Shown here piece by piece: positions 19,692 through 64,000 of a DNA stretch of 64,000 bases (the first letter of the stretch is position 1; each line of letters begins with the position of its first letter). Both the position numbers and the translations under genes were made by a program. A model generated the notes under the pieces. That model did no database searches. It was not told the origin of the DNA and saw only the letters and a list, made by a program, of their open reading frames with translations. Source of the DNA: Spirochaetota bacterium (lineage in GTDB: Bacteria; Spirochaetota; UBA4802; UBA5550). Location: NCBI GenBank assembly GCA_016933025.1, contig JAFGBT010000039.1:731-64730 (forward strand), given 5' to 3'.

Positions 19692-19943
19692 ACTATTTAT
19701 ACCGGTGCGGATTATGCCGCCACAGTATGGCCCCGCTTCCATCATATCAATTGAAAAAATTATTCTTATCAAAATATATTTTGACAGGACTTTGAATAAT
19801 CGGGTAGTGTCATGCATGCCTCGACGGAGTTCATCCTGAGCCCCTCGACCGCGCTCGGGACAGGCTTCGCCGGGAGGGTGTCGCCCGGAGCGGGTGAAAG
19901 CGCATACGGATGTAATTTTAAGAAACTTTTGCGGGAAGGGCAT

Positions 19944-31776: not shown

Positions 31777-31922
31777 ATTGTTAATCGTAAATGATTCTTA
31801 TGAAGTTATTTATATAATGGCGGCAGTATCCCGTGAGCAGGCGGCCAGGATGGCCGCCGGAGCCGATAGGACAGGATGTCCTATTTGCGGCGGGGCGAAC
31901 GGGATGCTGCCGCCATTAATAC

Positions 31923-34886
31923 TCATACCCTGTACTCCGCCCTCTCGATGAGCTCAATCTGCATCTCGCGGTTGAGGGTAACGAAATAGGCGTTGTAGCC
32001 CGATATGCGCACGATAAGGTTCCGGTACAGCTCCGGGTGCACCATGGCGTCGCGGAGAACCGCGGAAGAGACGACATTCATCTGCATCTGCATTCCGCCC
32101 AGGCCAAAATAGGTCTTCACATATGAGTGCATGGTGTCGACCATCTTCTCGTGGGTATCGCTCGCGCTCGGAACCACCTTGACGTTAAAGGCGATATTGT
32201 TGTTCATGTGCCGGGGGTTAAGCCGCGCGACGTCACGGATGTTGTCCAGCAGATTTTTCGAGGCGTTCGGCTCCGGCGTGAGGCCGGGTGTGAAGGCCTT
32301 GCCGGTCAGCCGGCCCGAGGGGAGCGCACCGGTCATGTTGCCGAAAATCACGTGGTTCGACATTGACCAGAAACCGGCCGTGTACCGGCCGCCCCGATAG
32401 TTCTTGTGCGCGTAATAGGCATCATGCGCGAATTTCGCCACGCGTCCGGCCATCGCCAGCGCCTCCTCGCTGCCCGAGCCGAATCGGGGCACCCTGCTCA
32501 TCACCAAGGCATGGAGCTCAGGGTAGCCCTGGTAGTTGGCGTCGATCGCCTTTTTAAATTCGGGGAGCGACACCTGCTTCTCGTCGTACACCAGCTTCTT
32601 GACCGCCATGAGCGAATCGGTGATGTCCGCCAGCCCGATGCATGCCGAGCCGGAGCTGTTGTACTTGGCCCCGCCCCGCGTCACGTCGAGGCCCTTCTTC
32701 ATTGGCCCGTCGATGAGCGCCGAGAGGAGCGGCGTGGGTCTGATATAGCCGTGTGCCTTCCCGAGCATGTTGTTCAGTTCAACGGAATTGTCGATAAGGA
32801 ACTGGAACTGCCTCGTGAAGGCGCGGTAGAATTCCTCGAAGGTCCGGAAGCTGCCGGACTCGATCGCGCCGGTCTCCGGGCCGACCTTCCAGTTCATGAG
32901 AGGATGCCTGCCGTTGTTGAGCGCCATCTCCAGCGCGGCCACCATGTTCATCATCATGCAGTTCGTGTGGCCGATGTGCTTGCCGGACAGGGTGGGCTCA
33001 ACGCACCCGGTTGCCGACCAGTTCCTCAGATCCTTTATATCGTACGCGAACTCTTTCAAAGAGGACATGACCGATTTGTCGTTGTGGAGCGACGGCGTTG
33101 CGGTCGTTATCAGGTTCACCTCGCAGAGCCGCCTCAGGTACGCGTCGCTGTTCACGCCGGGGCAGAAGCGGGCGTTGACGTTCGGGTCCCTGATGCTGAG
33201 CATCTCGGTGACCTTGAGGAATAGGTATGTCATGTCGCATACCGCGTCCTTCCCTTCCGGCGTGATACCGCCAAGCGTGATGGCCTGGTCCGACGAGCTG
33301 CCGCCAAAGAGGTAGTTTCCGATATCCGGCACCAGGGGAAGATGATCGGTGCACCGCATGTAGAAACAGCCGACCAGCTCGATAGCCTTCTTAATATACT
33401 CCTCGCGCTTCTTCGCGCTTTTCAATTTCGCCATGTCAGCCGCAAAATAGGGCTGGAACCACTGATCCATCCTTCCCAGGGAGAGGCCGGCGTTGGTGTT
33501 CTCCATGTGAAGACCCACCCATCCGATCCAGGCAGCGTTGACCGCCTCGTCGAGTGTTTCGCAGGGGCCCTCGGGCACACGGTCGCAGATAACGGCAAGC
33601 CTGAGGAGCTCCCCCTTCCTCACCGGGTCGGTCTCGCTCTGAGCCTCCGCGGCCGCCTGCTTCGAAAGGTTTTTCGCGTACGCGGCGAGCCCCTCCAGAC
33701 AGAGGATCATGGCCTCCAGAAGGGTACGCTTGTCCCGTTTCGATGCCGAGGTCTTCGCGATTTCACGGCGGATTTCCCCGATGTAGCCCTTTGTCCCTAT
33801 GCGCAGGAGCTTCGGGAAATCCGCGATCGTATGGGACAGGGCCACGCTCTTCCAGAGGAAGTAGACGGCGAACCGCTCGTCTATCCGCTGGCAGAGGGGA
33901 TTATCGTACTCCTCGCGGACCCACTCGCGGAAATTCCGGTGAGTCCAGTAGGGAAAGACGTCGCGATGAAGGACGCGCTTGGTATCACCAGAAATATTGT
34001 AGGGATTCAGCTCCCGGTCCGGCACGTTGTTGAGCTCGCCCCAGATCATAGTTCCGTGCGCGTCCGGATACAGGATGACGCCGATGTCCTTGGTGGTGGA
34101 GGTGCCGGCGACCAGGTCGCCCTTCCGGATGATCGGCCTGCGGTGTTCCATCATGTATTTATAGGCGCCCGCCTGCCTGAGCTCGGGGGGCCATGGCGTG
34201 CCGTCGGCCCTCTTTTCGAAACCATTCTCCTTGAACCACCGCGTCATCAGAAGCGCGCGCTCCGGGCATATTTCGGGCTTCGTGGTGAAATGCTGGTCGA
34301 GGAACTCCTTCAGCCGCGGAAAATCAGACAAGGAATAGCCCGATAGGTAGGGATCTGAAAGATATTTTACGCCCCGGTCCCTCGCCGGCGCCCTGAGCGC
34401 TCCATGGCGCGCGCTTTTTTCCGCGGGCGCGGGCCCGCTGTCGCCCTTCATCGAATCCGCCTGCTTCTGCCGCTCGTGTTCCTCGATCAGTTTCTTCTGC
34501 ATTCCGAGATGTTTCTTGTAGAGGAGGACTGAAACATAGTAGTTGAACAGGTTCGGGTAGGCGAAGTTGCCCTCGATGCGGAGCTTGCCTTTGGTCAGGA
34601 ACATGACCAGTTCGTTGGGGGGAAGATTGAGCGCTTCCATAACGGCTTTCCCGTCCCTGAAGATAAGGACCGAATCGACCCCTTCGGGTATAGAGCCCAT
34701 GACCGAGACCCTGCCGTCATTGAAGCGGACGGCGGCCATCACGCTCCTGTTCTCGGTACGGATCCCGATGCAAAAATTGGTCCACCCGTCAGCGCTCTTC
34801 AGGTACTGCCGTTTTGAGGGTATCCGGCTGTAAATAGCCGCCATCAAATGGAGCAGTATTTTGACCAGGATGTTCGTGAAATTCAT
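31923..34886 (-). CDS. Glycyl radical enzyme, PFL2 / dehydratase-lyase class, of unknown substrate. It carries an N-terminal SCP2-like extension of ~140 aa.
   Basis: C-terminal glycyl-radical motif RISGYNAYF. Thiyl-radical loop ATGCVEPT (single Cys followed by Glu, as in glycerol dehydratase/CutC/HypD types, not the CC of PFL). Length 987 aa. The N-terminal ~120 aa (…FLTKGKLRIEGNFAYPNLF…) resemble an SCP2 sterol-carrier fold. Confidence 0.85.
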   Translation of the reverse strand: MNFTNILVKILLHLMAAIYSRIPSKRQYLKSADGWTNFCIGIRTENRSVMAAVRFNDGRVSVMGSIPEGVDSVLIFRDGKAVMEALNLPPNELVMFLTKGKLRIEGNFAYPNLFNYYVSVLLYKKHLGMQKKLIEEHERQKQADSMKGDSGPAPAEKSARHGALRAPARDRGVKYLSDPYLSGYSLSDFPRLKEFLDQHFTTKPEICPERALLMTRWFKENGFEKRADGTPWPPELRQAGAYKYMMEHRRPIIRKGDLVAGTSTTKDIGVILYPDAHGTMIWGELNNVPDRELNPYNISGDTKRVLHRDVFPYWTHRNFREWVREEYDNPLCQRIDERFAVYFLWKSVALSHTIADFPKLLRIGTKGYIGEIRREIAKTSASKRDKRTLLEAMILCLEGLAAYAKNLSKQAAAEAQSETDPVRKGELLRLAVICDRVPEGPCETLDEAVNAAWIGWVGLHMENTNAGLSLGRMDQWFQPYFAADMAKLKSAKKREEYIKKAIELVGCFYMRCTDHLPLVPDIGNYLFGGSSSDQAITLGGITPEGKDAVCDMTYLFLKVTEMLSIRDPNVNARFCPGVNSDAYLRRLCEVNLITTATPSLHNDKSVMSSLKEFAYDIKDLRNWSATGCVEPTLSGKHIGHTNCMMMNMVAALEMALNNGRHPLMNWKVGPETGAIESGSFRTFEEFYRAFTRQFQFLIDNSVELNNMLGKAHGYIRPTPLLSALIDGPMKKGLDVTRGGAKYNSSGSACIGLADITDSLMAVKKLVYDEKQVSLPEFKKAIDANYQGYPELHALVMSRVPRFGSGSEEALAMAGRVAKFAHDAYYAHKNYRGGRYTAGFWSMSNHVIFGNMTGALPSGRLTGKAFTPGLTPEPNASKNLLDNIRDVARLNPRHMNNNIAFNVKVVPSASDTHEKMVDTMHSYVKTYFGLGGMQMQMNVVSSAVLRDAMVHPELYRNLIVRISGYNAYFVTLNREMQIELIERAEYRV

Positions 34887-44544: not shown

Positions 44545-44623
44545 AGGCGCTGTCCCAAAAGTCGGTTGCAGCGCCCCCCAACCCCCCAGAGGGGGGCTTT
44601 AATAAAACAGATATGAGACCTTT

Positions 44624-44670
44624 TCCCCCTCTCCCTCTGGGAGTCAGCAGCTTGAACATCCGTGTACGCT
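44624..44670. repeat. Degenerate copy of the GC-rich hairpin repeat element (ccccctctccctctgggag…gtgtacg).
   Basis: Its 5' half matches the element found at 46095, 59183 and 60901. The 3' half is diverged. It sits in a cluster of G/C-tract hairpins between rodA and the M15 peptidase gene. Confidence 0.45.
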
Positions 44671-44760
44671 GCTGCATTCGTGACATCCTGCCACTCAGTG
44701 GCCGGGGGGAGCAAGTCCCCCTTCGGGGATTTAGGGGCTTCTTAGACAGCCCCTCCCGGA

Positions 44761-46080
44761 TCAGTAGACGAACTTCCTGGCCCGGATATTGAGGATAATG
44801 CCGATGCTGATCATCGACATGAGGAGATTCGACCCGCCGTACGACACGAAACAGAGCGGGAGCCCCGTTACCGGCATGATCCCCACCGCCATCCCGATGT
44901 TGACCAGGACATGGAAAAAGAAGATCGTCGTTATCCCGCTCGCGAGCAGCGCCCCGAACTTGTCCTTGGCCTCAAAGGCGGTCTGGATGCAGCGGAATAT
45001 GATAAACCCGAAAAGGGATATAAGGACTATTCCGCCGAACAGGCCCCACGCCTCGGCCACCACCGAGAATATGAAATCCGATGTCTTCTCCGGGAGGAAC
45101 CCGAGCTGGGATTGCGAGCCCTTGAGAAACCCCTTGCCGAAGAACCCGCCGGAACCGATGGCGATCTTCGATTGTATAATGTTGTAACCCGAACCCTGGG
45201 GGTCCAGATCGGGGTTCAGAAAAACGAGGATCCGCCTCTTCTGGTAGACCTTGAAGAGATTCTGGATCAGGACAGACGCCAGGAGGCCCAGTGACAGGAT
45301 TGCGCCCGGGATATAGATCTTCCGTAAAAATTTCTTCACCGAAAAGAAATGAAACATGAACGCTGCGATCGTGATCACGAGCAGGACGCTGGAGACGATC
45401 AGGATGAGGTTCACGTCCTTGAAAAAATCGAGGATGAAATTGGAACTCTCGGCGCCGATCCACTCGCGGTAGGTCAGGATCATGGGGACAACCATCGCGA
45501 TGGCGGCGATCAGTATGATGGATACCAGATGGGAGACATCCGCGCCGCCGACAAAAAGCATCGTCAGGAGGATCGGAATGAAAATAATGGCCGTTCCGAA
45601 GTCCGGCTGATTCAGGATGATAATGATCGGAATGAACGTCAGAATCGTCGGCACGATCAGCTCGCGGAGGCGGTTGATATCGCGCTCGCGGATCTCCAGG
45701 TACTTGGCCAGTATGATGACCAGGGCCAGCTTCATGAACTCCGAGGGCTGTATCGAAAAAACGCCGAAATTGAGCCAGGCCCTGGTGTTGCGCACCGGCG
45801 TCCCGAAGATAGTCGTAATTATCAGCAGCACCAGGACTACGATATATATATGAAGGGAAAACTCCCCCAGCGCCTGGTAGTTGATGATGGTCAGACCGAT
45901 CATTAAAATCAGCCCGAAAATGAACCACAGGATCTGCTTGCGATAAAGGCCGCTGTTCATCTTGTCTATCGGGTCAAAACCGGCGCTGTAGATCATCAGA
46001 ATGCCGATGGCCACGGCAACCATAACCGCGATGACCAGGAGATAGTCCATCCTGGTTAATCCTTCTTTATTGAAAAGCAT
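44761..46080 (-). CDS. rodA: Peptidoglycan glycosyltransferase RodA (SEDS family).
   Basis: About 10 TM helices. SEDS signature blocks are present (GFDP, NLQPSEFMKL, FIFSVVAEAWG). It is the last gene of the mreBCD-mrdA-rodA cluster. Confidence 0.85.
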   Translation of the reverse strand: MLFNKEGLTRMDYLLVIAVMVAVAIGILMIYSAGFDPIDKMNSGLYRKQILWFIFGLILMIGLTIINYQALGEFSLHIYIVVLVLLIITTIFGTPVRNTRAWLNFGVFSIQPSEFMKLALVIILAKYLEIRERDINRLRELIVPTILTFIPIIIILNQPDFGTAIIFIPILLTMLFVGGADVSHLVSIILIAAIAMVVPMILTYREWIGAESSNFILDFFKDVNLILIVSSVLLVITIAAFMFHFFSVKKFLRKIYIPGAILSLGLLASVLIQNLFKVYQKRRILVFLNPDLDPQGSGYNIIQSKIAIGSGGFFGKGFLKGSQSQLGFLPEKTSDFIFSVVAEAWGLFGGIVLISLFGFIIFRCIQTAFEAKDKFGALLASGITTIFFFHVLVNIGMAVGIMPVTGLPLCFVSYGGSNLLMSMISIGIILNIRARKFVY

Positions 46081-46094
46081 ATGTCCTCGTACAA

Positions 46095-46160
46095 TTACCG
46101 ACCCCCCTCACCCCCGCCCCCTCTCCCGCAGGAAGAGGGGCGAAGAGCGCCTGAGCGGTC
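46095..46160. repeat. GC-rich hairpin repeat element, reverse orientation, in the mrdA-rodA intergenic spacer.
   Basis: Its reverse complement reads gcccctcttcctgcgggagagggggcgggggtgaggggggtcggtaattgtacg. That aligns at ~85 % with the copy at 60901-60950, flanks included. Confidence 0.65.
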
Positions 46161-46188: not shown

Positions 46189-48165
46189 TTACAGTTTAAT
46201 CCCCGGAGGATTACCATATGTCTTTTTAACGGCCGCGGCATCTCTGCCAGCAACCTGCCCCGGCGCGGGAACCGCCGCCTGCTTTGCCTCCGGCTGCTTC
46301 CTTAACGGAGAGTCCTGCTTCTGCCGGGACGCGGCGGTAAAATACCCGAGCTCATGCAGCTTCGCAAAAATACGTTCGGCGATCGGGACGGCGCTCGCCG
46401 CGCCGGCAATGCCGTATTCTATCAGGATGGCAGTGGCGACCGCCGTTTCAGGAGGCCCGTCATACGGCGCGTAGCCGACGAACCAGGCGTGCTGTGAGTA
46501 CTTTTCCTGCCTGATTGAACGCGTCTGCGCCGTCCCGGTTTTTCCGGCGACCGGAACTTTTAGATAGCCGAGGCGGCCCGATGTTCCGCTAGTGACGCTG
46601 AGCCGCATCCCCTTCTTGACCGCCTGTAATGTAAGGGGGGAGAGCGGTATCTCCCGGACCTTCTCCCGATGCATGGCCGTGATAACGCGATTGTTATCGT
46701 TGGTGCGTATCTCCTTTACTAGATGGGGGCGGTAGACAATGCCGTTGTTTACCAGCGCCGAGACAAATTCGCACATTCCTATCGGCGTCACGTGCAGGAA
46801 GCCCTGCCCTATCGACATGTTAACGGTGTCACCGTCGAACCAGGGCTGACCAAACACTTTGTATTTCCATTGCCTGGACGGCACAAAGCCGGCCACCTCG
46901 CCCGGGATATCGATGCCCGATTTCTGGTTGAGGCCGAAGTCCTCGGCGTATCTCATCATGATCGTGGGGCCGGTCAGGAGCCCGAGCTGGTAGAAGTAGA
47001 CGCTGCACGACTTGGCGATCGCCCAGTGGAGGTCAACAGTCCCATGGACATCGTAATCGTAAAACACATGGTCACGGTACCCCTTCAGGACGAACTTGCC
47101 CGGACAATAATAGGTCTTATCCGGCGTCGCCTTCTCGGTCTCGAGCGCCGCAACGGCGGTGACGAGCTTGAAGGTCGACGCGGGAGGGTATTTCGACTGG
47201 ATCACCCGATCCAGGAAGGGCCTCTGCTTATCGTTTTGGAGCTTCTTAATGATGGCTGCGTTGTTTTTTGATATAATAAGGTTCGGGTCGAAATCGGGCT
47301 TGCTCAGAAGCGCGATCACCTCGCCGGTTGAGGGCTTCAGGACTATCGCGGCGCCCTTCATGCCCTTCATTGCGTCATATATGATCTTCTGAATATTGTA
47401 ATCAATGGTGAGGACCAGGTTGTTCCCGGCCACCGGACGCTGCCCGATCTCCTCCCCCTCCGTTCTCTGTCTGACATCGACAATCCGGCGGACGTACCCG
47501 TCCCGCCCGCGCAGGAGCGGATCGTACTGCTTCTCGATACCCGATTTCCCGATCTTCTGATAGTGCTTGTAGCCTTCGGATTTCAGGCGCCTGTATTCGG
47601 CATGGCTTATGCTCCCGACGTAGCCGACAGCGTGGGCGAACATCTCGCTGAAATTATAGACCCGTACCGAAGCGTCCTCCCAGTCGATATTGGGGAACTT
47701 TTTCGGATGGGAGGCGATTTTCACGATGGTGTCGAATTCAACGTCCTCTTTTAACACCACCCGCTCCCACGGGTTGCCGCTATTGATCTCATCGATTATC
47801 TCGTCTTTATCGATTTTCAGAAGACGCGACAGAAGGTCGAGGATCTCGTATAATTTTTTTTTTGATTTGAATTTTGCCGGAATGGTCGTCAGGTTAAAAG
47901 ACGCCCGGTTTGAGACGAGGACGACGTTCTTTTCGCCCTCCTTGAAGTTGCGGTCGTATACATCGCCCCGCGCCGCAGGGATGGGGATATTGCTCTCCAT
48001 ATTAATCCGCGCCCTTGCCTGGTACTCTTTCCCCTGTATCACCTGAAGGTTGAGCAGTTGAAGTATCAGGGCGGCGAATGCCACGGCGGCGACCGCCATG
48101 TAGAAATACATCCTGACCCGGAAGGCTTCCTGCAGCTTTGCCCGCAAAGACGATTGCATCAGCAT
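46189..48165 (-). CDS. mrdA: Penicillin-binding protein 2 (elongasome transpeptidase).
   Basis: An N-terminal TM helix, a PBP dimerisation domain and the transpeptidase motifs STFK, SGT-like and KTGTAQ. The Ala/Pro/Gln-rich C-terminal tail is unusual. The start is placed to abut the mreD stop. Confidence 0.85.
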   Translation of the reverse strand: MLMQSSLRAKLQEAFRVRMYFYMAVAAVAFAALILQLLNLQVIQGKEYQARARINMESNIPIPAARGDVYDRNFKEGEKNVVLVSNRASFNLTTIPAKFKSKKKLYEILDLLSRLLKIDKDEIIDEINSGNPWERVVLKEDVEFDTIVKIASHPKKFPNIDWEDASVRVYNFSEMFAHAVGYVGSISHAEYRRLKSEGYKHYQKIGKSGIEKQYDPLLRGRDGYVRRIVDVRQRTEGEEIGQRPVAGNNLVLTIDYNIQKIIYDAMKGMKGAAIVLKPSTGEVIALLSKPDFDPNLIISKNNAAIIKKLQNDKQRPFLDRVIQSKYPPASTFKLVTAVAALETEKATPDKTYYCPGKFVLKGYRDHVFYDYDVHGTVDLHWAIAKSCSVYFYQLGLLTGPTIMMRYAEDFGLNQKSGIDIPGEVAGFVPSRQWKYKVFGQPWFDGDTVNMSIGQGFLHVTPIGMCEFVSALVNNGIVYRPHLVKEIRTNDNNRVITAMHREKVREIPLSPLTLQAVKKGMRLSVTSGTSGRLGYLKVPVAGKTGTAQTRSIRQEKYSQHAWFVGYAPYDGPPETAVATAILIEYGIAGAASAVPIAERIFAKLHELGYFTAASRQKQDSPLRKQPEAKQAAVPAPGQVAGRDAAAVKKTYGNPPGIKL

Positions 48166-48166
48166 A

Positions 48167-48670
48167 TTACAGGTACCCCTCTTTCTCCAGCTCACCCTCG
48201 AAAATCTTGTCGAATATGAAAAATAGCGGCGGCGCGAGCAGGGCATTGTAAAAAGACTCGGGAAGAATTATGCTCAGGATGGAAGAAGCCGACGCCTCGT
48301 GAAACACGTAGCACATAAAAAGGGTGATAAAGCCCTTGGCCAGCGACGCCACGAACAGGAGGAGCGACGTGGTGAGTATATTGCTCTTGAAGAGTGACCT
48401 GCCGAACATTCCCACGATAAAGGCGACCGCCACCTTGGGGAAGGTGAGAAGGCCCAATGGAGAGTTCGACACCGCGTCGTGAAGCAGACCGCCGATGAAT
48501 GCCGTCACCTCCCCGTAAAAAGAACCGAAGCAGTAGGAAAGGTAAACCACCGCGATAAATATGAGATCCGGCTTGACACCCGCGATACGAAGGACGTCAA
48601 ACGAGGTGTGGCCCTGAATCAGCAGGGAAACCAGTATTATCACCCCGGTGAACACGTATGTTAGTATCAT
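48167..48670 (-). CDS. mreD: Rod shape-determining protein MreD.
   Basis: A 167-aa polytopic membrane protein, placed between mreC and mrdA. Its start overlaps the mreC stop by 4 bp. Confidence 0.7.
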   Translation of the reverse strand: MILTYVFTGVIILVSLLIQGHTSFDVLRIAGVKPDLIFIAVVYLSYCFGSFYGEVTAFIGGLLHDAVSNSPLGLLTFPKVAVAFIVGMFGRSLFKSNILTTSLLLFVASLAKGFITLFMCYVFHEASASSILSIILPESFYNALLAPPLFFIFDKIFEGELEKEGYL

Positions 48671-56335: not shown

Positions 56336-57088
56336 TCACCGTGTATATCTTTTCAATAATTGCACAACCCGCACCTTTTTGGCCTTCTCAGCGTAATCAA
56401 GAGGAGTCATGCCTTTCTCGTCCTTGATGGTGATGTCCGCGCCGTTCTTGAGCAACAGCTCAATTATTCTGATATTGCCGACAAAAACGGCTCTGTGAAG
56501 CGGGGTCTGTTTTTCCTTGTTTTGAATATTTACGCTGGCTCCTTTTTGCAATAAATAGCTTGTTTCCTGAAAAAGTTCACCAGAGATTGTTTTAAAAATT
56601 GGAGTATCTCCATAATCAAAATCTACAGAATCAATACATACATCGAGATCTTCAATTACAAATCTGATTATATTAAATAACCTAGAATAAACAGCAGTAA
56701 ATAACAATTGGCTATCACAACTTCTATTAACGTAAACACCTTGACTAATCAAATATAAAATTATTTTTATATTACCATTATAAATAGCATCGCTTAAACA
56801 ATGTCTATTTTCATTTTCTGTATCAATCCTTGCTCCATTTATAATAAGCAATTTAACGATTTCAAGGCTGCTACTTTTTATAGCACCATTTAAAGGATAT
56901 TCGTCATGTGATAAAAATTGCTTTTTATAATTAACATCAACCCCTTGATTAATCAATAATAATACTCTTTGATACTCTCCTTTCATAGATGCCTGGTACA
57001 ACTGATCACCCAAATCTTCAACTATATTTGTTGTTGCACAACCAGACGAGAAAATCAATAATATTAAAAATATAATTATAATTCTCAT
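56336..57088 (-). CDS. Ankyrin-repeat lipoprotein. It is the probable cognate immunity protein of the upstream RHS toxin.
   Basis: Signal peptide with lipobox (LIFSSGCATT). At least 4-5 ANK repeats (…TPLHRAVFVGNIRIIELLLKNGADITIKDEKGMTPLDYA…). The start ATG overlaps the RHS stop as ATGA. GC content is very low compared with the rest of the window. Confidence 0.7.
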   Translation of the reverse strand: MRIIIIFLILLIFSSGCATTNIVEDLGDQLYQASMKGEYQRVLLLINQGVDVNYKKQFLSHDEYPLNGAIKSSSLEIVKLLIINGARIDTENENRHCLSDAIYNGNIKIILYLISQGVYVNRSCDSQLLFTAVYSRLFNIIRFVIEDLDVCIDSVDFDYGDTPIFKTISGELFQETSYLLQKGASVNIQNKEKQTPLHRAVFVGNIRIIELLLKNGADITIKDEKGMTPLDYAEKAKKVRVVQLLKRYTR

Positions 57089-60000
57089 TTATCTTTTGAC
57101 CTATTATATTCTTCTCTTACTTTACTTCTGTCATAAGGTTTTACACCCGGTATCAACTTACCATTAATATCATACATTTTCTGATTTTCAAATATCTGAT
57201 CTGGTAATGCTAAAAATGATTTACCAAGTTTAGCATTCTTGTCATCCTCATACGCCCAGGCGATAACCTCGGTACATACCATTTTATTATCGCCATCCTT
57301 AAACTTCCCTAAATTTCTCTTCCAGTTTTTACTATTGGTGAGCAAACTCCATGCGCCGCCGACCGCTCCAAGAAGCCCCTTCATGTCATATTCAAAATTG
57401 TCTTCTTTCATTGCCTTATCTAGCTTATTGATAGCATTCTTTCCTTCCTCTACCGTACCAACCCTGAAAAATCTATACTGGTCTATAGTTTCATATTTAT
57501 TATATTTCGTCCATTTTTCTTTTTTTGGATCCCATTCCATGCTTCCTTCCTTGCTAATAATCCTTTCCACGATTTTATCACCCTGGATATCAGTAACCAT
57601 CACTCCGACGACTTGGCCTTTATACTTAAACGACTGTTGCACCATTGCTGAATGGCCGAGCCTGCAACTGGTCTGCGAAAGTATCCTGTTTGATACTTCC
57701 GCGCCAAGCTTCGCTACAACACCCGCCTTTTCAGCCATTATCTGATCTTTAGGGCTTTCGGCCCGCATCATAAAATCCCCGATCCTCGCCTCCTCCATGC
57801 CTATCTCAACATGCCCGGTCGGGTCCTTGTACATTATCGGGTTGTTGGAGCAGTACGCGTACCGGTTCCAGGCCTGTGTGTTCGTCTCGCTCGATATAAC
57901 GGTGTCGGCCGTCACAAAACGCGCGATGTCCGGGTCGTAGTGGCGCGCGTTATAGAAGTAGTACCCGGTCTCCCGGTCCAGCTCCTGGCTGTTGTACTTG
58001 GGCGCGTGGCCCCGGTCGCCCTCGGTGATCCATGTCCCGCCGAAGGGGAGGTACTCGTTCTGCGACACGATCATCCCCGCATGGTCGAGCGTGACGGTGA
58101 CGCTGTCGACCTGGTCCGTCAGGTAGTGGAACGGCCTCCCGCCGGGAGCGACCGCGGCAATCCTCACGCCGTTCAGGTATATATGGCTGACCCGCATAGA
58201 GGACCCTGGTATTGGACGGCCGTCAATATCTTTTTGTGTCTCCAGGGTGAGGTACATGGAGGGCGATATCGTCTCCACGCTCCGGGCCTCGCTGCCGGCC
58301 GGCCTCGCGGAGACCTTGCGCACCCTGAACCCCTGTTCGTCGTAATCGTACCGGCCGAGCTCCTCGCCGGTGTCCGGGTCGGTCGCCAGGCGGATGCGGT
58401 TCAGGGAATCGTACGCCATCCGCTTTGCCATGTTTTTCTCCCGGTCGCGCTGGTATGTCATGTTCCCGGCCGCGTCGTATTCCATCTCGTAGCGTCCGGG
58501 GAGCCGCGCCGTGCCTATGGCGGTCGCTGCATGGTTGGCGTACGTGTACTCCCACCGGTCGTCGACCGCGCCGGTCTCACTATCATACACCGTCCTGGCC
58601 GTGAGATTGCCGCCGGGCGAATACTCATACCCGATTTCAAATTTCTTTGATATAACGGCGCCTGTATCCGGCGCTTCTGCAATCCCCGGATTTAAATCCG
58701 GGGATTGCAGAAGCGTTTTATTATAATCACCCCGCGCGTGCGCCAGCCGGTTCAGGCCGTCATACTCGTAATCGTAGCGAATGAGCCCCTCGCACGCCCC
58801 TTCGGCGTCGACGTTCGGGGCGTTTTCGATGGCGGCGATGCTGTCGTCCGGCCTGAATTCGTACGCGACGTCCTGCACCTTCCACTCCTCTCCATTGTGG
58901 CGCGCCACGGTCAGAAGGCGCTCAAGCCTCCCTCTGCGATCATACGTATAAGCGGTAACGGCATTGTTGCCGCGGCTCATTTCTATCATGCGCCCGAACT
59001 CGTTGTAGCGGACATTCTTCACGATATCCAGCGTCTCGCCGCCATTGTCGGCCGTGATTGATGTCACGCCCATGGCGCAGCGGCCGTACGAGACGGCCAT
59101 GCCTTTTCTCGCGTGCGGCTCTCGCGGGTATTCGATCAATATTTTTCTTCCTAAAAGATCATATTGATATCGAGTTATATATCTCCCCTCTCCCCGTGGG
59201 AGAGTGGTCGGGGGTGAGGGTTTCATAACTCGCGTCTCCTCCTTCACCCTCCCGATTTTATCATAGCAGAATTTCTTCGCCGACACCGGATCCTCGATGT
59301 ACGCCACCCTCCCGAGTGCGTTCGCGCATCCCCTGTACGAATCGTACACGTACCTGACCGTCCCTTCGTCTCCCGGAAGTCGCTTCACGGTCATCCGGCC
59401 CAGCCGGTCGTATTCAAAGGCCGTGACGCGGCCGAGTGCGTCGGTCACGGCGGCAGGCTCGCCGAAGGCGTTGTAATCGAGGCGCGCGTATCCGAGGTCC
59501 GGGTCGCTCGATTCCGTTACCCGGCCGAAGGCGTCGTAGCGCCATGCCGCCACGTTGCTGCCGGATGTGTCCTTCACGCCGGGCGCGAACAGCGACGCGT
59601 CCACTTCCCGTAGCGAGGGGCTTAAGCCCCTCGCTACGGGAAGATCAAATTTCTTCACCCTGTTGCCCGCGATATCATACACGAACCCGATCATCGCGCT
59701 CACAAACGCGCCGGCCCCTGAGCCTGTGCCGAGCGAAGCCGAGGCATCGCCGATGCCCGAATCCCCGGCATAGAGAACGAGCCCCCGTCCGTTCCTGACG
59801 ACCCGCTTGGACCTTTCGAGGCTGTTGGTTTCAATAACTTCCCATGGATCATGGTAGACAAACGACGTCGACGCCTCCGGCTCGCCGTCATACGCCGGGG
59901 GGAGGGTGATTTTTGACGGGCGTCCGGACCCGTCATACTCTGTCACGGTCGGGTTCTTCTCACGGAGGTGGGGGACGAACCGCCCGATCTCGTCATCGGC

Positions 60001-63000
60001 CGCCCAATCCGGCTGGCTGCGCCGCGTTACGCGGCCAACCCGGTCGTAGGTTACCATGCCCGTCTTGATGTACCGCCTCCCCGGCTCGCCGGTCGCGCTC
60101 CGCAGCGTGTGGAGCTTGCGGCCCATGCCGTCGGCGAACACGCGCGTTTCTATCATGCCCGGCCCCATGCCGAGGGCGCCCGAAGCGCCCGTGTACTGCC
60201 GCACTATGCCGCTCAGGGGGAACGCGTCCGAATAGGCGTACTCGTTCAGGGTCTCTGTCCCGGCATCGGTATCGGCCCGCTCGCGCGCCAGCCGGCCCAG
60301 TCCGTCGTACTCGAAATAGGCGCTGTTGCCGTTCGGGTCGGTCTTCTTCACCGGCGCGCCGAAAGCCGGCCCATACCCGATCTCATATACTGTGGAAAAA
60401 ATTACCGCGTCGCCAAGAGCCCGCTCCTCCACGACGAACTGACGGAGCTCCCCGTCGTAGGCCTTCTCCGCGATCCGTGCCGGGCTCCCGCTCGCGTTGG
60501 TCTCCCGCACCCTGTTGCCGCACCCGTCATAATAGTATTCAATTATTTTATCGGACACGGGAGCAAGCCCCGATCCGGTGTACGACACGAGCTCGCGAAC
60601 GACGTTTCCCCGTTCGTCGTACTCGTATGATACCGTTGTCTCATGGTCCGTGCCGGCGAGGTTCTTCCGGTACGCGGCCCTCATCTCGTTCGTGGCCTGG
60701 ATGTTTTCGAACCGGGTACTTGTCGATGCGGTCACCGGCGCGTGGGCCGCGTCCGAGTAGTGGTCGGTCACGCTCTCGGACGCGCCGGTCATCTCGTACT
60801 TCCCGGAAACAAGCTCGATGCTCGAGGTACGGGTCTCCACGAGTACGCCACGGGCGTACCTGCGCGTTTCAGTAGGCTCTACAAGATAACTGCACGCCGT
60901 CCCCCCCTCTCCCTGCGGGAGAGGGGCCGGAGGTGAGGGCTCGATTACCCGCACGGTGTAGTCATGTTCACTCCTTTCATACTCGACATGGTCAGACCCT
61001 ATCCGCCTCGTCTCCCTGACCGCGCCGCCAAGGGCCCGGTTCATCCTGAAGTCGTCGTACGGCATCGCATGATAGCGGCTCACGGTCTTCGCGCCGTACG
61101 CGTCCGTGACCGTAAACTCGCCGAAGCCGAAGCAGTCGCTCTCGCGGACGCCGTTCACAAAGGCCGAAAAGGAAGAGCCGTTTTTGTATCCGTACCGGGC
61201 GACCACGCTGCGGCCGAGGCCGTCGGCGACCTCCAGCCGCGAGCAGACGCGGTAGTTCATCGGGAGGTCCGGCACGCCGTCCCCGCCCGTGTTGTCAAAA
61301 CCGGACGAGTTGACGTACTCCATCGCGTACGATCCGCCGATACCGTTCTTCACGCCGGTAAGGAGGTCGGGCACGGCCCCCTGGGTCAGGGCGAAATACC
61401 AGCTCCGCTCTTTCAGGTGGAAAAAGCCGATATCGGTCTTGCCGTCGCCGTTGTAGTCGCCCTGGAGCCACGCGAAGGGATAGACCTTCCTCATTAAATC
61501 CGGACGGTCGAACACGATCCCGGGCGCCATCTCCTCCAGGCGGAAGCTCCCGTCATCCAGCACGACCCGCTTCGCGGCCGCACCGTCGAAGACGACCGGC
61601 CTCCCCTCATGGTCGAAGTCCCCGGTGAACGAAACCTGCTCCGCCATGACATAGTCCCGCGAGAACGACACGCGGCCGCCCTCTATCAGGAGCCGATGGA
61701 AGCATACCGGGCCGCCGTCCGCGGCGGCGTAGACGAATTCAGTCGAAGACCCGCGGGCGGCAGCGACGTGCCCCAGGAATCCTTCATTATAGAAGCGGGG
61801 GGCGCCCGATAGCGCTTCGAACGATACGCCGTCCCCGCCCGGCGTTATCCGTCCCCGGTACCAGCGGTGCGCCTCCGACGAGAAGTCGACCGCGAGCAGC
61901 GAGGCGCTCCCCTCGCCCCCGAACACGCAGGAGAGCACCCTGAGTCCCGCGCGGCTCCGCGCCTCCCGGAAAAATTCGGCATCGAGCGCGCCGGATACGG
62001 CCAGCCGCCGCGCGGCGCCATCCTTATCGAACAGGACGAAACCGGGCTCCTCAGATCGGTCGTCGAGCACCAGCAGGTATGAATCCGGGTCGTATTCCGC
62101 GAAGCGGCCGGCCCAGTAGAGGCTCATCCCGATGTCGAAATCGGACACCGCGCCGGAGTCAAACGCTGCGAAGGGCTCCTCGGAAAAGCCGGTCCCGGTG
62201 TGGCTGATCAGGAAAAAACGGTGCTCCGTACCGCCGATGACCGACCCCTCAGGCCGGTAGTAGAGGATGCCGTCCCTTCCGCGCCAGGGCCCCGGCCTCC
62301 CCCCGAACAGGACGCGGGCGCCGTCCGCCTCCATGCCCGGGACATCGAGAGCCGGAACCGGATCGGCGCTCCCCTCTTTCAGGTAAAACCGCCGCTCAGC
62401 CCGGTTGTATATGAGCAGCTCAGTCCCTTCGACTCCGCTCAGGGCAGGTTCTTCGGCGGAGCTTATCCCGAGTCCCTCGCCTGCGCTCGGGATAAACTCC
62501 GTCGAGGTGCTCTCCGGCGTGAACCGGCCGGCGAAGACCCGCTCGCCCCGGCCCTCGTGGCTGTTGCCGTCGTACCGGAACGCGACAACCGTCGTGACAC
62601 CATCGCCGGGCGCCACGGCCCTGCCGTCCGCCATCACGACCTCATCGCGCGGCAGGGGCGCGGCAAGGATGCGCGCCGGGTTGGGGCAGTCGCGCAGGTT
62701 CGTGTAGGCCCGGTAGCGGAAGCCGTCCGGCTCGGCCTCGCCGATCCAGAAGTTTCCGTCAGAGGCGGAGTAGAAGCCGATGTCGGTCCTGCCGTCTCCG
62801 TTGAAGTCACCCTGGAGCCAGCGCGTGACATCCCTGAACTTCGGCGCGCGCGAGAACTTTCGGAAGGATATGCGCCGGTCGCCGGTCTCGCCGATCCACC
62901 ATTCGCCGCTGTCCCGGTCGAACATGAGGAAATCGGAGAGGCCGTCTCCGTTGAAGTCACCGGAGAACCGGTCGTTCGCGAAGAGCGCCCGCTCCGGCGC

Positions 63001-63993
63001 GCTGAACCCGCCGTACCGGTACCAGTCCAGCGTGAAGCAGGCTGTCATGCCGAGCGTAGTCGAGGCATCGACACGCCGGTTCTCGCCCACCAGCCAGGCG
63101 CCGCTCCGGGAGTCGTAGAGAGAGACGTCGGTCCTGCCGTCGCCGTTGTAGTCGCCGCAGATGAAGTGCACGCGCTCCCGGTGCCGCCCCTGCGGGCCCG
63201 TGTCCGATGTCGCGTCCGAGTTCAGCGAGGAGTCGGGGTCATAATCGTCACGGAAGAGGTTTTTGAAATGCCGCGGCAGATCGATGAACTCGAACGAGCC
63301 GCCCCCGTTCTTCATGAAGGTCCAGCGGCCGGCCGGCTCGTGGAAGAGGAGAACGTCCGACAGGGCGTTGCCGTCGAAGTCGCCGGTGAACCATTCGCAC
63401 GCGGCCGGGTCGAGGCCCGCGCCGTATTTCCCGTAGACCCGGAAGTCGAAACAGATGCCGTTATGCTCCGCGACCCAGAGCTCCCGCGTCTCCGGAAGAT
63501 AGAAAGGGATGTCGCTCCGGCCGTCCCCGTTGTAGTCGCCGGTGGCGCCCCCCTTGAACCAGCAGATGCGGCCGCCGCCGTATCCACGGAAGCGCCTGCC
63601 GTAGATCTTCGCGGCATACCCGCCGCCGGCCCCCTCGACTCCGCTCGGGATGGCCTCTGCCGCCTTCCACTCGCCGGTCTCCGGGTTGAAAAAGGCCATG
63701 TCGGACAGGCCGTCGCCGTTGAAGTCTCCCTCGAAATACCGTACGTCGTCAGGTTCCTCCCCCGCATCGCCCGCAAATGGATTGGCCGCGTTTTGCCAGA
63801 GAAAATAGTGCTCGGCCTCCCGGTATTCGAACGCGGGCCGGGTGGAATGCCTGTCCGACCGGACCGTGTCGAGGAGCGGCCTGCGCGAGTCCGCCGACTC
63901 GCGAAAGACCGGCTCGTACCGCCAGAGCTCGCGCTCCCCCGATCGGGAGTCCCATCCGACGCAAACGGCTTCCAGGAGCCTGTCCATGCGCAT
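57085..63993 (-). CDS. RHS/YD-repeat polymorphic toxin. It has an N-terminal FG-GAP-like repeat region, a central YD-repeat shell, an RHS core ending …NPIMYKDPTGH, and a ~330-aa AT-rich C-terminal toxin domain. The N-terminus may run past the window edge.
   Basis: At least seven GD(F/Y)NGDG(R/L)(S/T)D…W repeats of FG-GAP type. More than twelve YD repeats (YEYDERGNV, YYYDGCGNR, YEYDGLGRL, FEYDRLGRM, YTYDRRGRL…). The core end reads ARHYDPDIARFVTADTV…NRYAYCSNNPIMYKDPTGH. The C-terminal domain matches no motif I know, but has candidate Cys/His residues (TSCRLGH, KMVCTEV). The frame is still open at position 64000. Confidence 0.85.
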   Translation of the reverse strand: MRMDRLLEAVCVGWDSRSGERELWRYEPVFRESADSRRPLLDTVRSDRHSTRPAFEYREAEHYFLWQNAANPFAGDAGEEPDDVRYFEGDFNGDGLSDMAFFNPETGEWKAAEAIPSGVEGAGGGYAAKIYGRRFRGYGGGRICWFKGGATGDYNGDGRSDIPFYLPETRELWVAEHNGICFDFRVYGKYGAGLDPAACEWFTGDFDGNALSDVLLFHEPAGRWTFMKNGGGSFEFIDLPRHFKNLFRDDYDPDSSLNSDATSDTGPQGRHRERVHFICGDYNGDGRTDVSLYDSRSGAWLVGENRRVDASTTLGMTACFTLDWYRYGGFSAPERALFANDRFSGDFNGDGLSDFLMFDRDSGEWWIGETGDRRISFRKFSRAPKFRDVTRWLQGDFNGDGRTDIGFYSASDGNFWIGEAEPDGFRYRAYTNLRDCPNPARILAAPLPRDEVVMADGRAVAPGDGVTTVVAFRYDGNSHEGRGERVFAGRFTPESTSTEFIPSAGEGLGISSAEEPALSGVEGTELLIYNRAERRFYLKEGSADPVPALDVPGMEADGARVLFGGRPGPWRGRDGILYYRPEGSVIGGTEHRFFLISHTGTGFSEEPFAAFDSGAVSDFDIGMSLYWAGRFAEYDPDSYLLVLDDRSEEPGFVLFDKDGAARRLAVSGALDAEFFREARSRAGLRVLSCVFGGEGSASLLAVDFSSEAHRWYRGRITPGGDGVSFEALSGAPRFYNEGFLGHVAAARGSSTEFVYAAADGGPVCFHRLLIEGGRVSFSRDYVMAEQVSFTGDFDHEGRPVVFDGAAAKRVVLDDGSFRLEEMAPGIVFDRPDLMRKVYPFAWLQGDYNGDGKTDIGFFHLKERSWYFALTQGAVPDLLTGVKNGIGGSYAMEYVNSSGFDNTGGDGVPDLPMNYRVCSRLEVADGLGRSVVARYGYKNGSSFSAFVNGVRESDCFGFGEFTVTDAYGAKTVSRYHAMPYDDFRMNRALGGAVRETRRIGSDHVEYERSEHDYTVRVIEPSPPAPLPQGEGGTACSYLVEPTETRRYARGVLVETRTSSIELVSGKYEMTGASESVTDHYSDAAHAPVTASTSTRFENIQATNEMRAAYRKNLAGTDHETTVSYEYDERGNVVRELVSYTGSGLAPVSDKIIEYYYDGCGNRVRETNASGSPARIAEKAYDGELRQFVVEERALGDAVIFSTVYEIGYGPAFGAPVKKTDPNGNSAYFEYDGLGRLARERADTDAGTETLNEYAYSDAFPLSGIVRQYTGASGALGMGPGMIETRVFADGMGRKLHTLRSATGEPGRRYIKTGMVTYDRVGRVTRRSQPDWAADDEIGRFVPHLREKNPTVTEYDGSGRPSKITLPPAYDGEPEASTSFVYHDPWEVIETNSLERSKRVVRNGRGLVLYAGDSGIGDASASLGTGSGAGAFVSAMIGFVYDIAGNRVKKFDLPVARGLSPSLREVDASLFAPGVKDTSGSNVAAWRYDAFGRVTESSDPDLGYARLDYNAFGEPAAVTDALGRVTAFEYDRLGRMTVKRLPGDEGTVRYVYDSYRGCANALGRVAYIEDPVSAKKFCYDKIGRVKEETRVMKPSPPTTLPRGEGRYITRYQYDLLGRKILIEYPREPHARKGMAVSYGRCAMGVTSITADNGGETLDIVKNVRYNEFGRMIEMSRGNNAVTAYTYDRRGRLERLLTVARHNGEEWKVQDVAYEFRPDDSIAAIENAPNVDAEGACEGLIRYDYEYDGLNRLAHARGDYNKTLLQSPDLNPGIAEAPDTGAVISKKFEIGYEYSPGGNLTARTVYDSETGAVDDRWEYTYANHAATAIGTARLPGRYEMEYDAAGNMTYQRDREKNMAKRMAYDSLNRIRLATDPDTGEELGRYDYDEQGFRVRKVSARPAGSEARSVETISPSMYLTLETQKDIDGRPIPGSSMRVSHIYLNGVRIAAVAPGGRPFHYLTDQVDSVTVTLDHAGMIVSQNEYLPFGGTWITEGDRGHAPKYNSQELDRETGYYFYNARHYDPDIARFVTADTVISSETNTQAWNRYAYCSNNPIMYKDPTGHVEIGMEEARIGDFMMRAESPKDQIMAEKAGVVAKLGAEVSNRILSQTSCRLGHSAMVQQSFKYKGQVVGVMVTDIQGDKIVERIISKEGSMEWDPKKEKWTKYNKYETIDQYRFFRVGTVEEGKNAINKLDKAMKEDNFEYDMKGLLGAVGGAWSLLTNSKNWKRNLGKFKDGDNKMVCTEVIAWAYEDDKNAKLGKSFLALPDQIFENQKMYDINGKLIPGVKPYDRSKVREEYNRSKDK
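59183..59232. repeat. GC-rich hairpin repeat element, copy A, in frame inside the RHS gene. It encodes KPSPPTTLPRGEGRY.
   Basis: tctcccctctccccgtgggagagtggtcgggggtgagggtttcataac. The stem is CCCCTCTCCCC/GGGAGAGTGG. It is ~85 % identical to the copy at 60901. Confidence 0.65.
60901..60950. repeat. GC-rich hairpin repeat element, copy B, in frame inside the RHS gene. It encodes EPSPPAPLPQGEGGT.
   Basis: ccccccctctccctgcgggagaggggccggaggtgagggctcgattaccc. The stem is a perfect 10 bp, CCCCTCTCCC-tgc-GGGAGAGGGG. Confidence 0.65.
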
Positions 63994-64000
63994 GATGAAC

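Follow-up and report, generated by a model that had tools for sequence, protein, structure and literature searches.

The host gene and the copies of the repeat

The DNA analysed here is a stretch of 64,000 nucleotides (64 kb; the window in what follows) from contig JAFGBT010000039.1 of a Spirochaetota bacterium (assembly GCA_016933025.1), one end of which is occupied by a minus-strand gene for a giant, Tc-toxin BC-like RHS protein. Within the coding sequence of this gene lie two copies of a short hairpin repeat, a G/C-rich "intrastrand triplex motif" (TM), whose repeated unit is 36 nt long, that is, 12 codons made up of three 10-nt blocks and 3-nt linkers. The same element is found twice outside the gene, once in full and once in degenerate form. 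The features concerned are the following.

57085-64000, minus strand: Tc-toxin BC-like fusion gene with FG-GAP repeats, TcdB_toxin_midN, an RHS/YD cocoon and a C-terminal variable domain
60904-60939, minus strand: site A TM, in gene sense CCCTCACCTC-CGG-CCCCTCTCCC-GCA-GGGAGAGGGG; peptide PSPPAPLPQGEG, aa 1019-1030
59185-59220, minus strand: site C TM, in gene sense CCCTCACCCC-CGA-CCACTCTCCC-ACG-GGGAGAGGGG; peptide PSPPTTLPRGEG, aa 1592-1603
46105-46140, plus strand: intergenic TM, CCCTCACCCC-CGC-CCCCTCTCCC-GCA-GGAAGAGGGG, in the gap of 108 nt that separates the mrdA-like gene from the rodA-like gene
46189-48246, minus strand: mrdA-like gene, one border of that gap
44761-46080, minus strand: rodA-like gene, the other border of that gap
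44624-44647, plus strand: degenerate half TM, CCCCCTCTCCCTCTGGGAGtcag, downstream of rodA; core match from 44627 with 3 mismatches

An earlier note on this DNA had placed two hairpin copies in the reading frame of the RHS gene, and the coordinates, sequences and peptides that it gave for them were all confirmed; across aa 1019-1031, in the site A region, the minus-strand open reading frame (ORF) reads PSPPAPLPQGEGG. This ORF (57085-63993, minus strand; 77% GC at third codon positions, GC3) runs straight through both TMs. Its reported length of 2302 aa is sound as a minimum and does not stand as the full length: the frame is free of stops upstream of the ATG at 63993, and an orthologous contig (L124, 82% DNA identity) reaches 821 nt further in that direction, so that the host gene runs off the window. 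In Pfam searches the protein matches RHS_repeat (4.4e-32), TcdB_toxin_midN (1.7e-07) and FG-GAP_3. An AlphaFold (AF2) model of aa 850-2000 was obtained with a predicted local distance difference test score (pLDDT) of 78 and a predicted template modelling score (pTM) of 0.75, and its top Foldseek match is the TcdB2-TccC3 cocoon (TM-score 0.70, E = 1.8e-43), followed by the Rhs cores of type VI secretion systems (T6SS). By its RHS/YD repeats, its TcdB mid/N region and its cocoon fold, the product belongs to the Rhs / Tc-toxin BC cocoon class. The nearest homologues, at 50-59% identity, come from metagenome-assembled genomes (MAGs), those with a name being assigned to Spirochaetota, Spirochaetes or Leptospirales, and Leptospira RHS proteins are ~42% identical to the host protein. 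In two orthologues (P0023 and P0005) a SpvB domain lies upstream that is absent from the window's ORF. On one homologue contig (L003) the Tc BC-like protein is contained in two adjacent ORFs (P0026 and P0006; 5722-9942 and 10001-13300) whose split point is not a TM; this division may reflect a frameshift or pseudogene, or else B and C components that are truly separate.

The repeat had been described as a unit of about 50 bp including similar flanks; the real unit is 36 nt, and the additional similarity corresponds to ordinary gene homology or chance. A repeat finder aligned 59185-59233 with 60904-60952 at 80% identity over 49 nt and paired both genic copies with 46105-46149 in inverted orientation. 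The hairpin, announced as a perfect 10-bp stem with a 3-nt loop, was predicted in exactly this form for the 60.9-kb copy; the stem of the 59.2-kb copy pairs at 9 of 10 positions, with one mismatch. Allowing up to 3 mismatches, the hairpin core CCCTCTCCC-NNN-GGGAGAGGG occurs four times in the window (44627, 46119, 59186 and 60905) against 0.03 expected, and the G-rich tail of the TM three times against 0.00 expected. The 64 kb contain three full TMs and one half copy, with unrelated flanks. In the RHS sense orientation the TM is free of stop codons in every phase, and its 36 nt preserve the reading frame. No Rfam family matches at any TM of the window at gathering thresholds. In a terminator scan of the window the TMs were not flagged, and they have no T tract, which fits the published absence of terminator activity.

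Identity and distribution of the repeat

By their sequence, the RHS repeats are TM elements of the BoxC/PIT/TMECO type. The BoxC repeat of the 1990s was later named PIT, for potential intrastrand triplex (Hoyne and Maher 2000, as cited in Holder et al. 2015, PMC4666352), and then TMECO (Holder et al. 2015, PMC4666352), and its published pattern is 5'-CCCTCNCCC N3-6 GGGNGAGGG N3 GGGNGAGGG (PMC4666352). When three consecutive 9-nt blocks are sought with one mismatch allowed, all three full copies of the window show them: CCCTCTCCC, GGGAGAGGG and AGGTGAGGG at 60904-60939 (one mismatch in the last), CCCTCTCCC, GGGAGAGTG (one mismatch) and GGGTGAGGG at 59185-59220, and CCCTCACCC, CCCTCTCCC and GGAAGAGGG (one mismatch) at 46105-46140. 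The plus-strand copy of the window, CCCCTCTCCCTGCGGGAGAGGGGCCGGAGGTGAGGG, is nearly the published TMECO type B, CCCTCTCCCTGTGGGAGAGGGCCGGGGTGAGGGC. In the window the hairpin loop is 3 nt, and the second linker measures 3 nt if the blocks are counted as 10 nt and 5 nt if they are counted as 9 nt, compared with the published N3; aligned genomic copies show that this 10-nt-block form is common in other phyla too. The window copies share with BoxC/PIT/TMECO the three blocks (CCCTCNCCC, loop, GGGNGAGGG, linker, GGGNGAGGG or the complement), a length of ~34-37 nt and sharp borders, and within the 64 kb they are dispersed and multi-copy like them. They differ from the E. coli elements in that two of them lie in coding sequence, in their 10-nt blocks and in a host phylum other than Proteobacteria.

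In E. coli K-12, 23 TMECO copies are known, described as 'always located intergenically' (PMC4666352), a location not shared by two of the three full window copies. Five inverted TMECO pairs exist in E. coli; as a single strand the E. coli TM forms a triplex in vitro, by circular dichroism and nuclear magnetic resonance (CD/NMR), and none was seen in vivo (PMC4666352). The motif was reported from 262 proteobacterial genomes (Holder et al. 2015, PMC4666352), and an Enterobacter genome paper mentions 100 copies of a hairpin at the 3' ends of genes. The distribution turns out to be much broader. A scan of one genome per species with the pattern CCCTCACC-N4-9-CCTCTCCC-NNN-GGGAGAGG returned at least 120 loci; the 83 matches listed include Planctomycetota, Acidobacteriota, Chloroflexota, Verrucomicrobiota, Myxococcota, Omnitrophota, Cyanobacteria, Bacteroidia, Ignavibacteria and more, as well as the genera Pseudomonas, Xanthomonas, Klebsiella and Acinetobacter. 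Alignment of 146 genomic copies revealed sharp borders and unrelated flanks, and the consensus is a dispersed element of 33-40 nt with the blocks CCCTCACCC, CCCTCTCCC and, past a short loop, GGGAGAGGG. TMs are also present on at least 120 viral stretches, among which a DUF559 gene (see below) was found on 1 of 120, so that carriage of a cassette by phages is unsupported. The suggestion that the same element exists outside RHS genes is therefore borne out in unrelated genomes and in intergenic DNA, and the converse proposal, that the intergenic copies are fragments of RHS genes, is not supported for an element that occurs in many phyla with unrelated flanks and coincides with the BoxC/PIT/TMECO motif.

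Copies in frame are not confined to RHS genes. The longest stop-free ORFs over the 146 genomic copies were run against Pfam, and only cases verified in this way were counted. A solo TM lies in frame in the linker between the MeaB and mutase domains of an IcmF-like fusion (L008); an Eco57I/MmeI-type methylase carries one (PSPSGRGQGEG) directly ahead of its NPPW motif (L088); and two YgiQ-like radical SAM proteins contain one each (L011 and L070), that of L011 being a clean 15-aa insertion relative to L070. Verified genes hold at least ~4% of the copies in the 146-copy sample. In proteins other than RHS the element is read in other phases and also in the opposite orientation. Many other long stop-free ORFs over TMs (among them L123, L118, L057, L009, L122, L078, L040 and L030) gave no Pfam match and were discarded as spurious products of GC-rich sequence. 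One further case (L054), in which a molybdopterin subunit is followed by a cytochrome c, is ambiguous, since a TM without stops may there connect two separate genes. In-frame copies had been called unusual. They are indeed uncommon, the E. coli copies being all intergenic, although not peculiar to the toxin gene, as other genes also carry them.

Insertion of the repeat in RHS genes

The RHS copies are insertions with a lineage-specific presence. The host protein was aligned with 15 homologues, 13 of which span site A (aa 1019); 12 of these 13 show a gap of ~10 aa there, the sole exception, P0001, reading SLPLPTGEGG, a decayed form. The loop at site C (aa 1592) varies in length across the alignment, and P0005 carries TSPPDPLSPGERG there. 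The DNA of four homologue contigs (L001, L002, L003 and L124) was fetched. At site A the TM of L001 is decayed, and L124 terminates within its TM; a perfect hairpin occupies site C in L002, and L003 has perfect TMs at two additional positions, site B (MPSPPGPLSQGERGG) and site D (LPPGPLSHGERGS), which correspond to loops free of TMs in the window. At sites A-D the C-rich strand is the sense strand and the TM starts in the PSPP phase, without exception. In a Spirochaetes relative (P0019) a TM-type peptide is located in the N-terminal region, elsewhere than sites A-D, and a distant RHS protein (P0031) contains one elsewhere in the opposite orientation. Between the window and L001 the conservation of the site A TM (67.5%) does not exceed that of its flanks (61-68%).

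The placement of the copies was read from the structural model. Site A (model segment 170-182) is predicted at a tip between the strands E155-168 and E186-198, and site C (743-754) at a tip between E734-741 and E755-762, both segments having a pLDDT below 50. These low-confidence β-hairpin tips, together with the absence of the insertion from most homologues, agree with the earlier suggestion that a dispersed repeat has been inserted and tolerated in loops of the RHS shell. The opposite possibility, that the motif is a conserved and intrinsic part of YD repeats, is contradicted by most RHS homologues, including those of Leptospira, from which the peptides are missing. Three of the four homologue contigs begin or finish within ~220 nt of a TM; in L002 the TM occupies 7665-7685 and the contig finishes at 7829, 144 nt past site C, and in L001 the TM lies at 219-239, the contig beginning 218 nt ahead of site A. 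To judge from these contig ends, the repeat seems to break short-read metagenome assemblies.

Association with DUF559 genes

TMs are associated in a fixed geometry with YcjD-like genes of the DUF559 family (PF04480). Such genes adjoin TMs in Acinetobacter (L013) and in a sphingomonad (L037). With a DUF559 alignment trimmed of the TM-coded tails (seeds [VI]E[LA]DGGQH and KFRRQ[HS][PV][VI][AGE]), 80 metagenomic loci were fetched. Under a strict definition of the TM, 48 of the 80 have one within 300 bp of the gene, and the density of TMs near the DUF559 gene (96 in 69.5 kb, 1.38/kb) exceeds that elsewhere (15 in 306.6 kb, 0.049/kb) 28-fold. Under a relaxed definition, a correctly oriented TM is present within 150 bp on at least one side in 59 of the 80 loci (74%), a proportion that, the query having been built partly from TM-linked genes, applies to this DUF559 subfamily only, and on both sides in 36. 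Upstream TMs are mostly on the minus strand (48 versus 15 on the plus strand) and downstream TMs on the plus strand (50 versus 16 on the minus strand), which corresponds to the layout (CCCTCTCCC-loop-GGGAGAGGG-n-GGGTGAGGG)-ORF-(CCCTCACCC-n-CCCTCTCCC-loop-GGGAGAGGG). Identity is higher between the two ends of a given locus (83%) than between ends of different loci (73%), and the hairpin loop is identical at both ends in 7 of 36 same-locus pairs compared with 1.2% between loci. The hairpin arms covary, as in CCCTCCCCC/GGGGGAGGG and CCTTCCCCC/GGGGGAAGG, with 46 perfect pairs where shuffling gives a mean of 16; this regex-based count is noisy, as variable loops shift the block register, and is used as supporting evidence only. 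In several free-standing DUF559 copies the start codon follows the upstream G-rich blocks at a distance of a few bases, and in several the stop codon falls in or beside the downstream TM.

Against the Protein Data Bank (PDB), the DUF559 profile gives a strong match to 3hrl (8e-36), an uncharacterised 'endonuclease-like protein', and weak ones to I-Bth0305I (3r3p, 0.031) and Vsr (1cw0, 0.5). At the RHS gene there is no TM-DUF559-TM cassette, understood as a DUF559 ORF with inverted TMs within ~150 bp, and its copies are solo TMs. Solo TMs outnumber cassettes by 30-100 to 1.

Modules inside housekeeping genes and E. coli ycjD

The whole TM-DUF559-TM arrangement is also found in frame in conserved genes. 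In one methionyl-tRNA synthetase (MetRS; L015) the DUF559 domain lies between the anticodon-binding and the C-terminal tRNA-binding domains, with TMs in opposite orientations on both sides. Pfam confirmed in-frame modules in another MetRS (L205), in an HrpA-like helicase gene at the DEAD / Helicase_C boundary (L148), in MetH at the boundary of the pterin-binding and B12-binding domains (L192) and in a nucleotidyltransferase (NTP-transferase) gene (L162). The modules stay in frame with no intron or intein around them, and on this evidence the embedded DUF559 module would be translated together with the host protein. A search with the L205 MetRS retrieved dozens of MetRS clusters with PF04480, those with a name being from Beta- and Gammaproteobacteria, and module-bearing MetRS proteins exist in the cultured Methylocaldum szegediense (P0236) and Methylococcus mesophilus (P0214). 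In an alignment of 46 MetRS sequences, 33 contain the module, judged by insert length, with the flanks P.P.GRG.GGEG and PSPxxPLPxGEG; relatives at 85-87% identity have no module and show a plain linker of 37-45 aa instead, indicating several gains or losses of the module in MetRS. In one of these proteins (P0123) the right-hand flank is PSPPAPLPQGEG, letter for letter the peptide of RHS site A. In public annotation the module-bearing proteins appear simply as 'methionine--tRNA ligase'.

E. coli itself has a DUF559 gene, ycjD, and in K-12 (L125, 1349500-1352500) the published TMECO #9 is situated 168 bp downstream of it; a BoxC-like half hairpin, CCCTCGCTCTTTCAGGGAGAGGG, spans the ycjD stop codon. 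The gene is accessory, being present in 3378 of 5426 complete E. coli genomes (62%). We take the strains K-12, BL21, HS, 55989, IAI1 and W to belong to phylogroups A and B1, and CFT073, UTI89, IHE3034, S88 and APEC O1 to phylogroup B2. The published TMECO counts are 19-30 in the former strains and 1-2 in the latter (PMC4666352, supplementary table), and ycjD is reported from phylogroups A, B1 and C, where it stands instead of the eef operon (2026 paper, PMC12817139). TMECO counts appear to follow the presence of ycjD by phylogroup, a suggestive parallel. A clean empty site for ycjD was sought in E. coli; strains without the gene hold the eefRABC efflux operon, with no TM at the junction, and homology between strains with and without ycjD breaks ~40 bp before TMECO #9. 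Since eefRABC replaces ycjD and homology ends ahead of the element, this comparison is uninformative as to insertion borders.

Origin and persistence of the RHS copies

We favour, with a probability of roughly 0.8, the reading that the RHS copies are solo TMs tolerated as passengers in β-hairpin loops, that the TM family constitutes the ends of a DUF559 cassette and that solo copies are derivatives or relics of it. According to this explanation, the TM family forms the inverted terminal repeats of a small cassette encoding a YcjD-like DUF559 nuclease of the Vsr-like PD-(D/E)XK type, and the thousands of solo TMs, those of the RHS gene included, would most likely be its non-autonomous derivatives or relics. 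The nuclease may make breaks or drive conversion that spreads or maintains TMs. A very large, loop-rich and non-essential toxin gene would tolerate insertions of 12 codons, and the copies would persist there because they are 12 codons long, free of stops in this orientation and translated as a short Pro/Gly/Ser-rich peptide at a hairpin tip. Such copies would be neutral or nearly neutral passengers and not parts of YD repeats, and what looks like an oddity in a giant toxin gene would be tolerated selfish DNA. Pro/Gly-rich 12-residue loop inserts (PSPPxPLPxGEG) in proteins from MAGs can accordingly be repeat-derived.

A wider proposal, to which we give somewhat less than even odds, is that BoxC/PIT/TMECO elements in general are the inverted ends of an unrecognised selfish cassette whose DUF559 nuclease generates or maintains the solo copies. 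The cassette would be 'translation-proof', being found in frame without intron or intein in essential genes such as metG and metH; it would be tolerable there because its ends are free of stops and encode flexible Pro/Gly linkers, and large proteins such as the RHS toxin could in the same way keep solo ends in their loops. BoxC/PIT is among the oldest unexplained bacterial repeats, its origin not being known since the 1990s, and the results constitute a concrete and testable candidate for its origin and spread, along with a possible function for the uncharacterised ycjD of E. coli. The element itself is known; what goes beyond published work is that the 36-nt element occurs in many phyla, is translated in real proteins and brackets YcjD-like DUF559 genes in a fixed geometry. 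Neither its occurrence in frame nor its DUF559 partner was found in the searched literature, full-text searches having returned no paper in which DUF559 or ycjD is brought together with BoxC, PIT or intrastrand triplex, and DUF559 and ycjD are unmentioned in Holder et al. 2015 (PMC4666352).

Several observations weigh against the passenger reading or its cassette component. The 80 YcjD-like DUF559 loci were ranked by similarity to the query alignment, three of whose four members had been found via TMs. Neither the 64-kb window nor any of the four RHS-homologue contigs contains a DUF559 gene, and only ~1-3% of TM-centred loci have one, so mobilisation would have to act in trans. Neither a target-site duplication nor a shared target is visible beside the RHS TMs, in homologue DNA or among the 146 aligned copies. 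E. coli TMs have no promoter or terminator activity and, by BLAST, no tie to transposons, phages or plasmids, and the TMECO count is 11 in O157 strains (PMC4666352, with its supplementary table). The parallel between these counts and ycjD rests on very few independent lineages. A single phase at all four RHS loop sites has a chance probability of ~0.04. Finally, window and L002 share 87% identity in the site C TM compared with 63-66% in its flanks, and this stronger conservation could reflect selection on the element rather than neutrality.

The most serious alternative, unlikely as we consider it, is that the RHS copies are footprints of full TM-DUF559-TM modules that once stood in the RHS loops and lost the left TM and the nuclease ORF by deletion, the right TM being left behind. 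Modules do enter proteins in frame and come and go among MetRS relatives, and the RHS peptides match the right-hand flank of the module in orientation, phase and sequence, up to the identity of PSPPAPLPQGEG with the flank of P0123. Such a history would nevertheless require, in four independent loops, a deletion sparing exactly one clean in-frame TM. PF04480 is present in none of the 120 RHS homologues listed, and the MetRS relatives devoid of the module show the plain linker and no solo TM. The excess of solo TMs over cassettes speaks in the same direction.

Ranked after it, and improbable as well, is a functional explanation in which in-frame TMs are kept either as DNA prone to recombination or diversification or as mRNA hairpins that pace translation. 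The conservation of the site C TM beyond its flanks and the covariation of the hairpin arms, noisy as that count is, could be understood in these terms, and so could the variable length of the TM-bearing loops across the family, with a different palindrome at site D. Conversion by other genomic copies could equally explain the conservation, however, and the site A copy in L001 decays at the rate of its flanks, while most homologues do without copies altogether. Rhs tips are exchanged at the core/toxin junction, and the TMs lie mid-shell (aa 1019 and 1592), away from it. As for local instability, TM loci of E. coli vary between strains more than control intergenic sites and have been tied to local genomic instability, which would suit a role in diversification, but PIT elements are without terminator or promoter effect and without an in vivo triplex (PMC4666352).

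A protein-level origin, in which PSPPxxLPxGEG is selected in YD-shell loops and the intergenic copies derive from RHS genes, would account for the one phase at all four RHS loops. We regard it as highly improbable: the palindrome is kept at synonymous positions of the DNA, identical DNA is found, its flanks being unrelated, in intergenic regions and in unrelated genes of many phyla, the peptide is missing from Leptospira and other RHS homologues, and other proteins read the element in other phases and in the other orientation. Even less credible is a chimeric ORF created by an assembler that joined contigs at the shared repeat, for although L124, L002 and L001 have a contig end within a TM or close to one, both copies are crossed by an unbroken frame and by homology to the same RHS family, and independent assemblies (L003, for example) have TMs at the same loops in continuous genes.

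Comparison with known systems

The closest parallel to tolerated in-frame repeats comes from Rickettsia, whose palindromic elements (RPE) were reportedly described by Ogata et al. in 2000 as 'selfish DNA in protein-coding genes'. Like RPE, which are discussed in PMC1779305, the TM is a dispersed palindromic repeat that lies in frame in genes, is translated as an extra peptide and occupies non-critical positions of the protein. The RHS TMs fall into this class of in-frame selfish repeats, being in frame, missing in relatives and outside the core secondary structure. They are not RPE as such: these are ~100-150 bp long, AT-rich, restricted to Rickettsia and unrelated in sequence, whereas the TM is 36 nt long, GC-rich and present in many phyla.

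The earlier note had likened the repeat to the REP/MITE type, a label that holds as an analogy only. As in the repetitive extragenic palindromic (REP) sequences, with their REPIN doublets and REP-associated tyrosine transposases (RAYT), there are many short hairpin repeats per genome, one or a few genes flanked by inverted copies, and inverted doublets. The partner gene is different, however, since RAYT are IS200/IS605-like Y1 transposases and the gene found with TMs is a PF04480 DUF559 gene with a Vsr-like PD-(D/E)XK nuclease and no Y1 transposase; in addition, REPs are extragenic, whereas TMs occur in genes too. With MITEs, miniature transposable elements that have inverted repeats, the TM would share the condition of a short, structured, non-coding derivative bearing the terminal repeats of a longer element. 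It departs from them in that a solo TM is a single end, no transposase is known for it and the target-site duplication looked for at the two genic copies was found at neither, and it was not classed as a MITE.

The Vsr-like (EDxHD) homing endonucleases, such as I-Bth0305I (PMC3239194) and the family of 'fractured genes' (PMC2677866), have a related fold with a weak sequence relation to DUF559, and the DUF559 module resembles them in its presence in conserved housekeeping genes and its presence or absence among close relatives. Unlike them, it comes without intron or intein, in frame and with inverted TM ends.

Other repeats and minor observations

The RHS gene contains further structured repeats, which are listed here.

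58672-58715, minus strand: perfect palindrome of 44 bp, in frame, in the site D loop (aa ~1760-1774), LLQSPDLNPGIAEA
62425-62504, minus strand: second GC-rich dispersed repeat family, in frame, an insertion of ~27 aa, …TEFIPSAGEGLGISSAEEPALSGVEG… / …IPSAGEGLGISSAEEPALSGVEG…

The palindrome consists of two 22-nt arms with zero spacer and falls in a model loop (913-929) that, like sites A and C, is a β-hairpin tip with a pLDDT below 50; the RHS homologue P0006 has a TM in this same loop. Compared with homologue P0001 the right arm adds 7 aa, which is what an inverted duplication of the 22 nt before it would produce. The second family, whose copy at 62425-62504 is 77% identical to intergenic 19821-19872, is also in frame at 63632-63662 as an insertion of 6 aa (IPSGVEG). 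Both of its insertions lie in the N-terminal part of the RHS gene and are shared by the closest orthologue only. Because the site D palindrome and these two insertions are present in addition to the TMs, the gene content of repeats fits the picture of the host gene as a sink for structured repeats.

Two interpretations of the TM sequence itself were set aside. A G-quadruplex reading of GGGAGAGGGGCCGGGGGTGAGGG was considered and dropped in favour of the published triplex work, and a resemblance to the 3' end of 16S rRNA (CACCTCC) fits one copy only and not the consensus.

Elsewhere in the window, two short three-block motifs stand beside the degenerate TM downstream of rodA, at 44574-44596 (CCCCCC-AA-CCCCCC-AGA-GGGGGG) and 44717-44738 (CCCCC-TTC-GGGGA-TTTA-GGGGC); they look like other variants of triplex-type repeats. 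The sole Rfam match in the window at gathering threshold is a TwoAYGGAY RNA at 31798-31933 on the plus strand, which scores 45 bits where 43 are required. A lengthy series of degenerate repeats with a 24-nt period (families D1 and D2) extends over 11086-11714; it is rich in pyrimidines on the plus strand and probably corresponds to a charged repeat region of a minus-strand gene.

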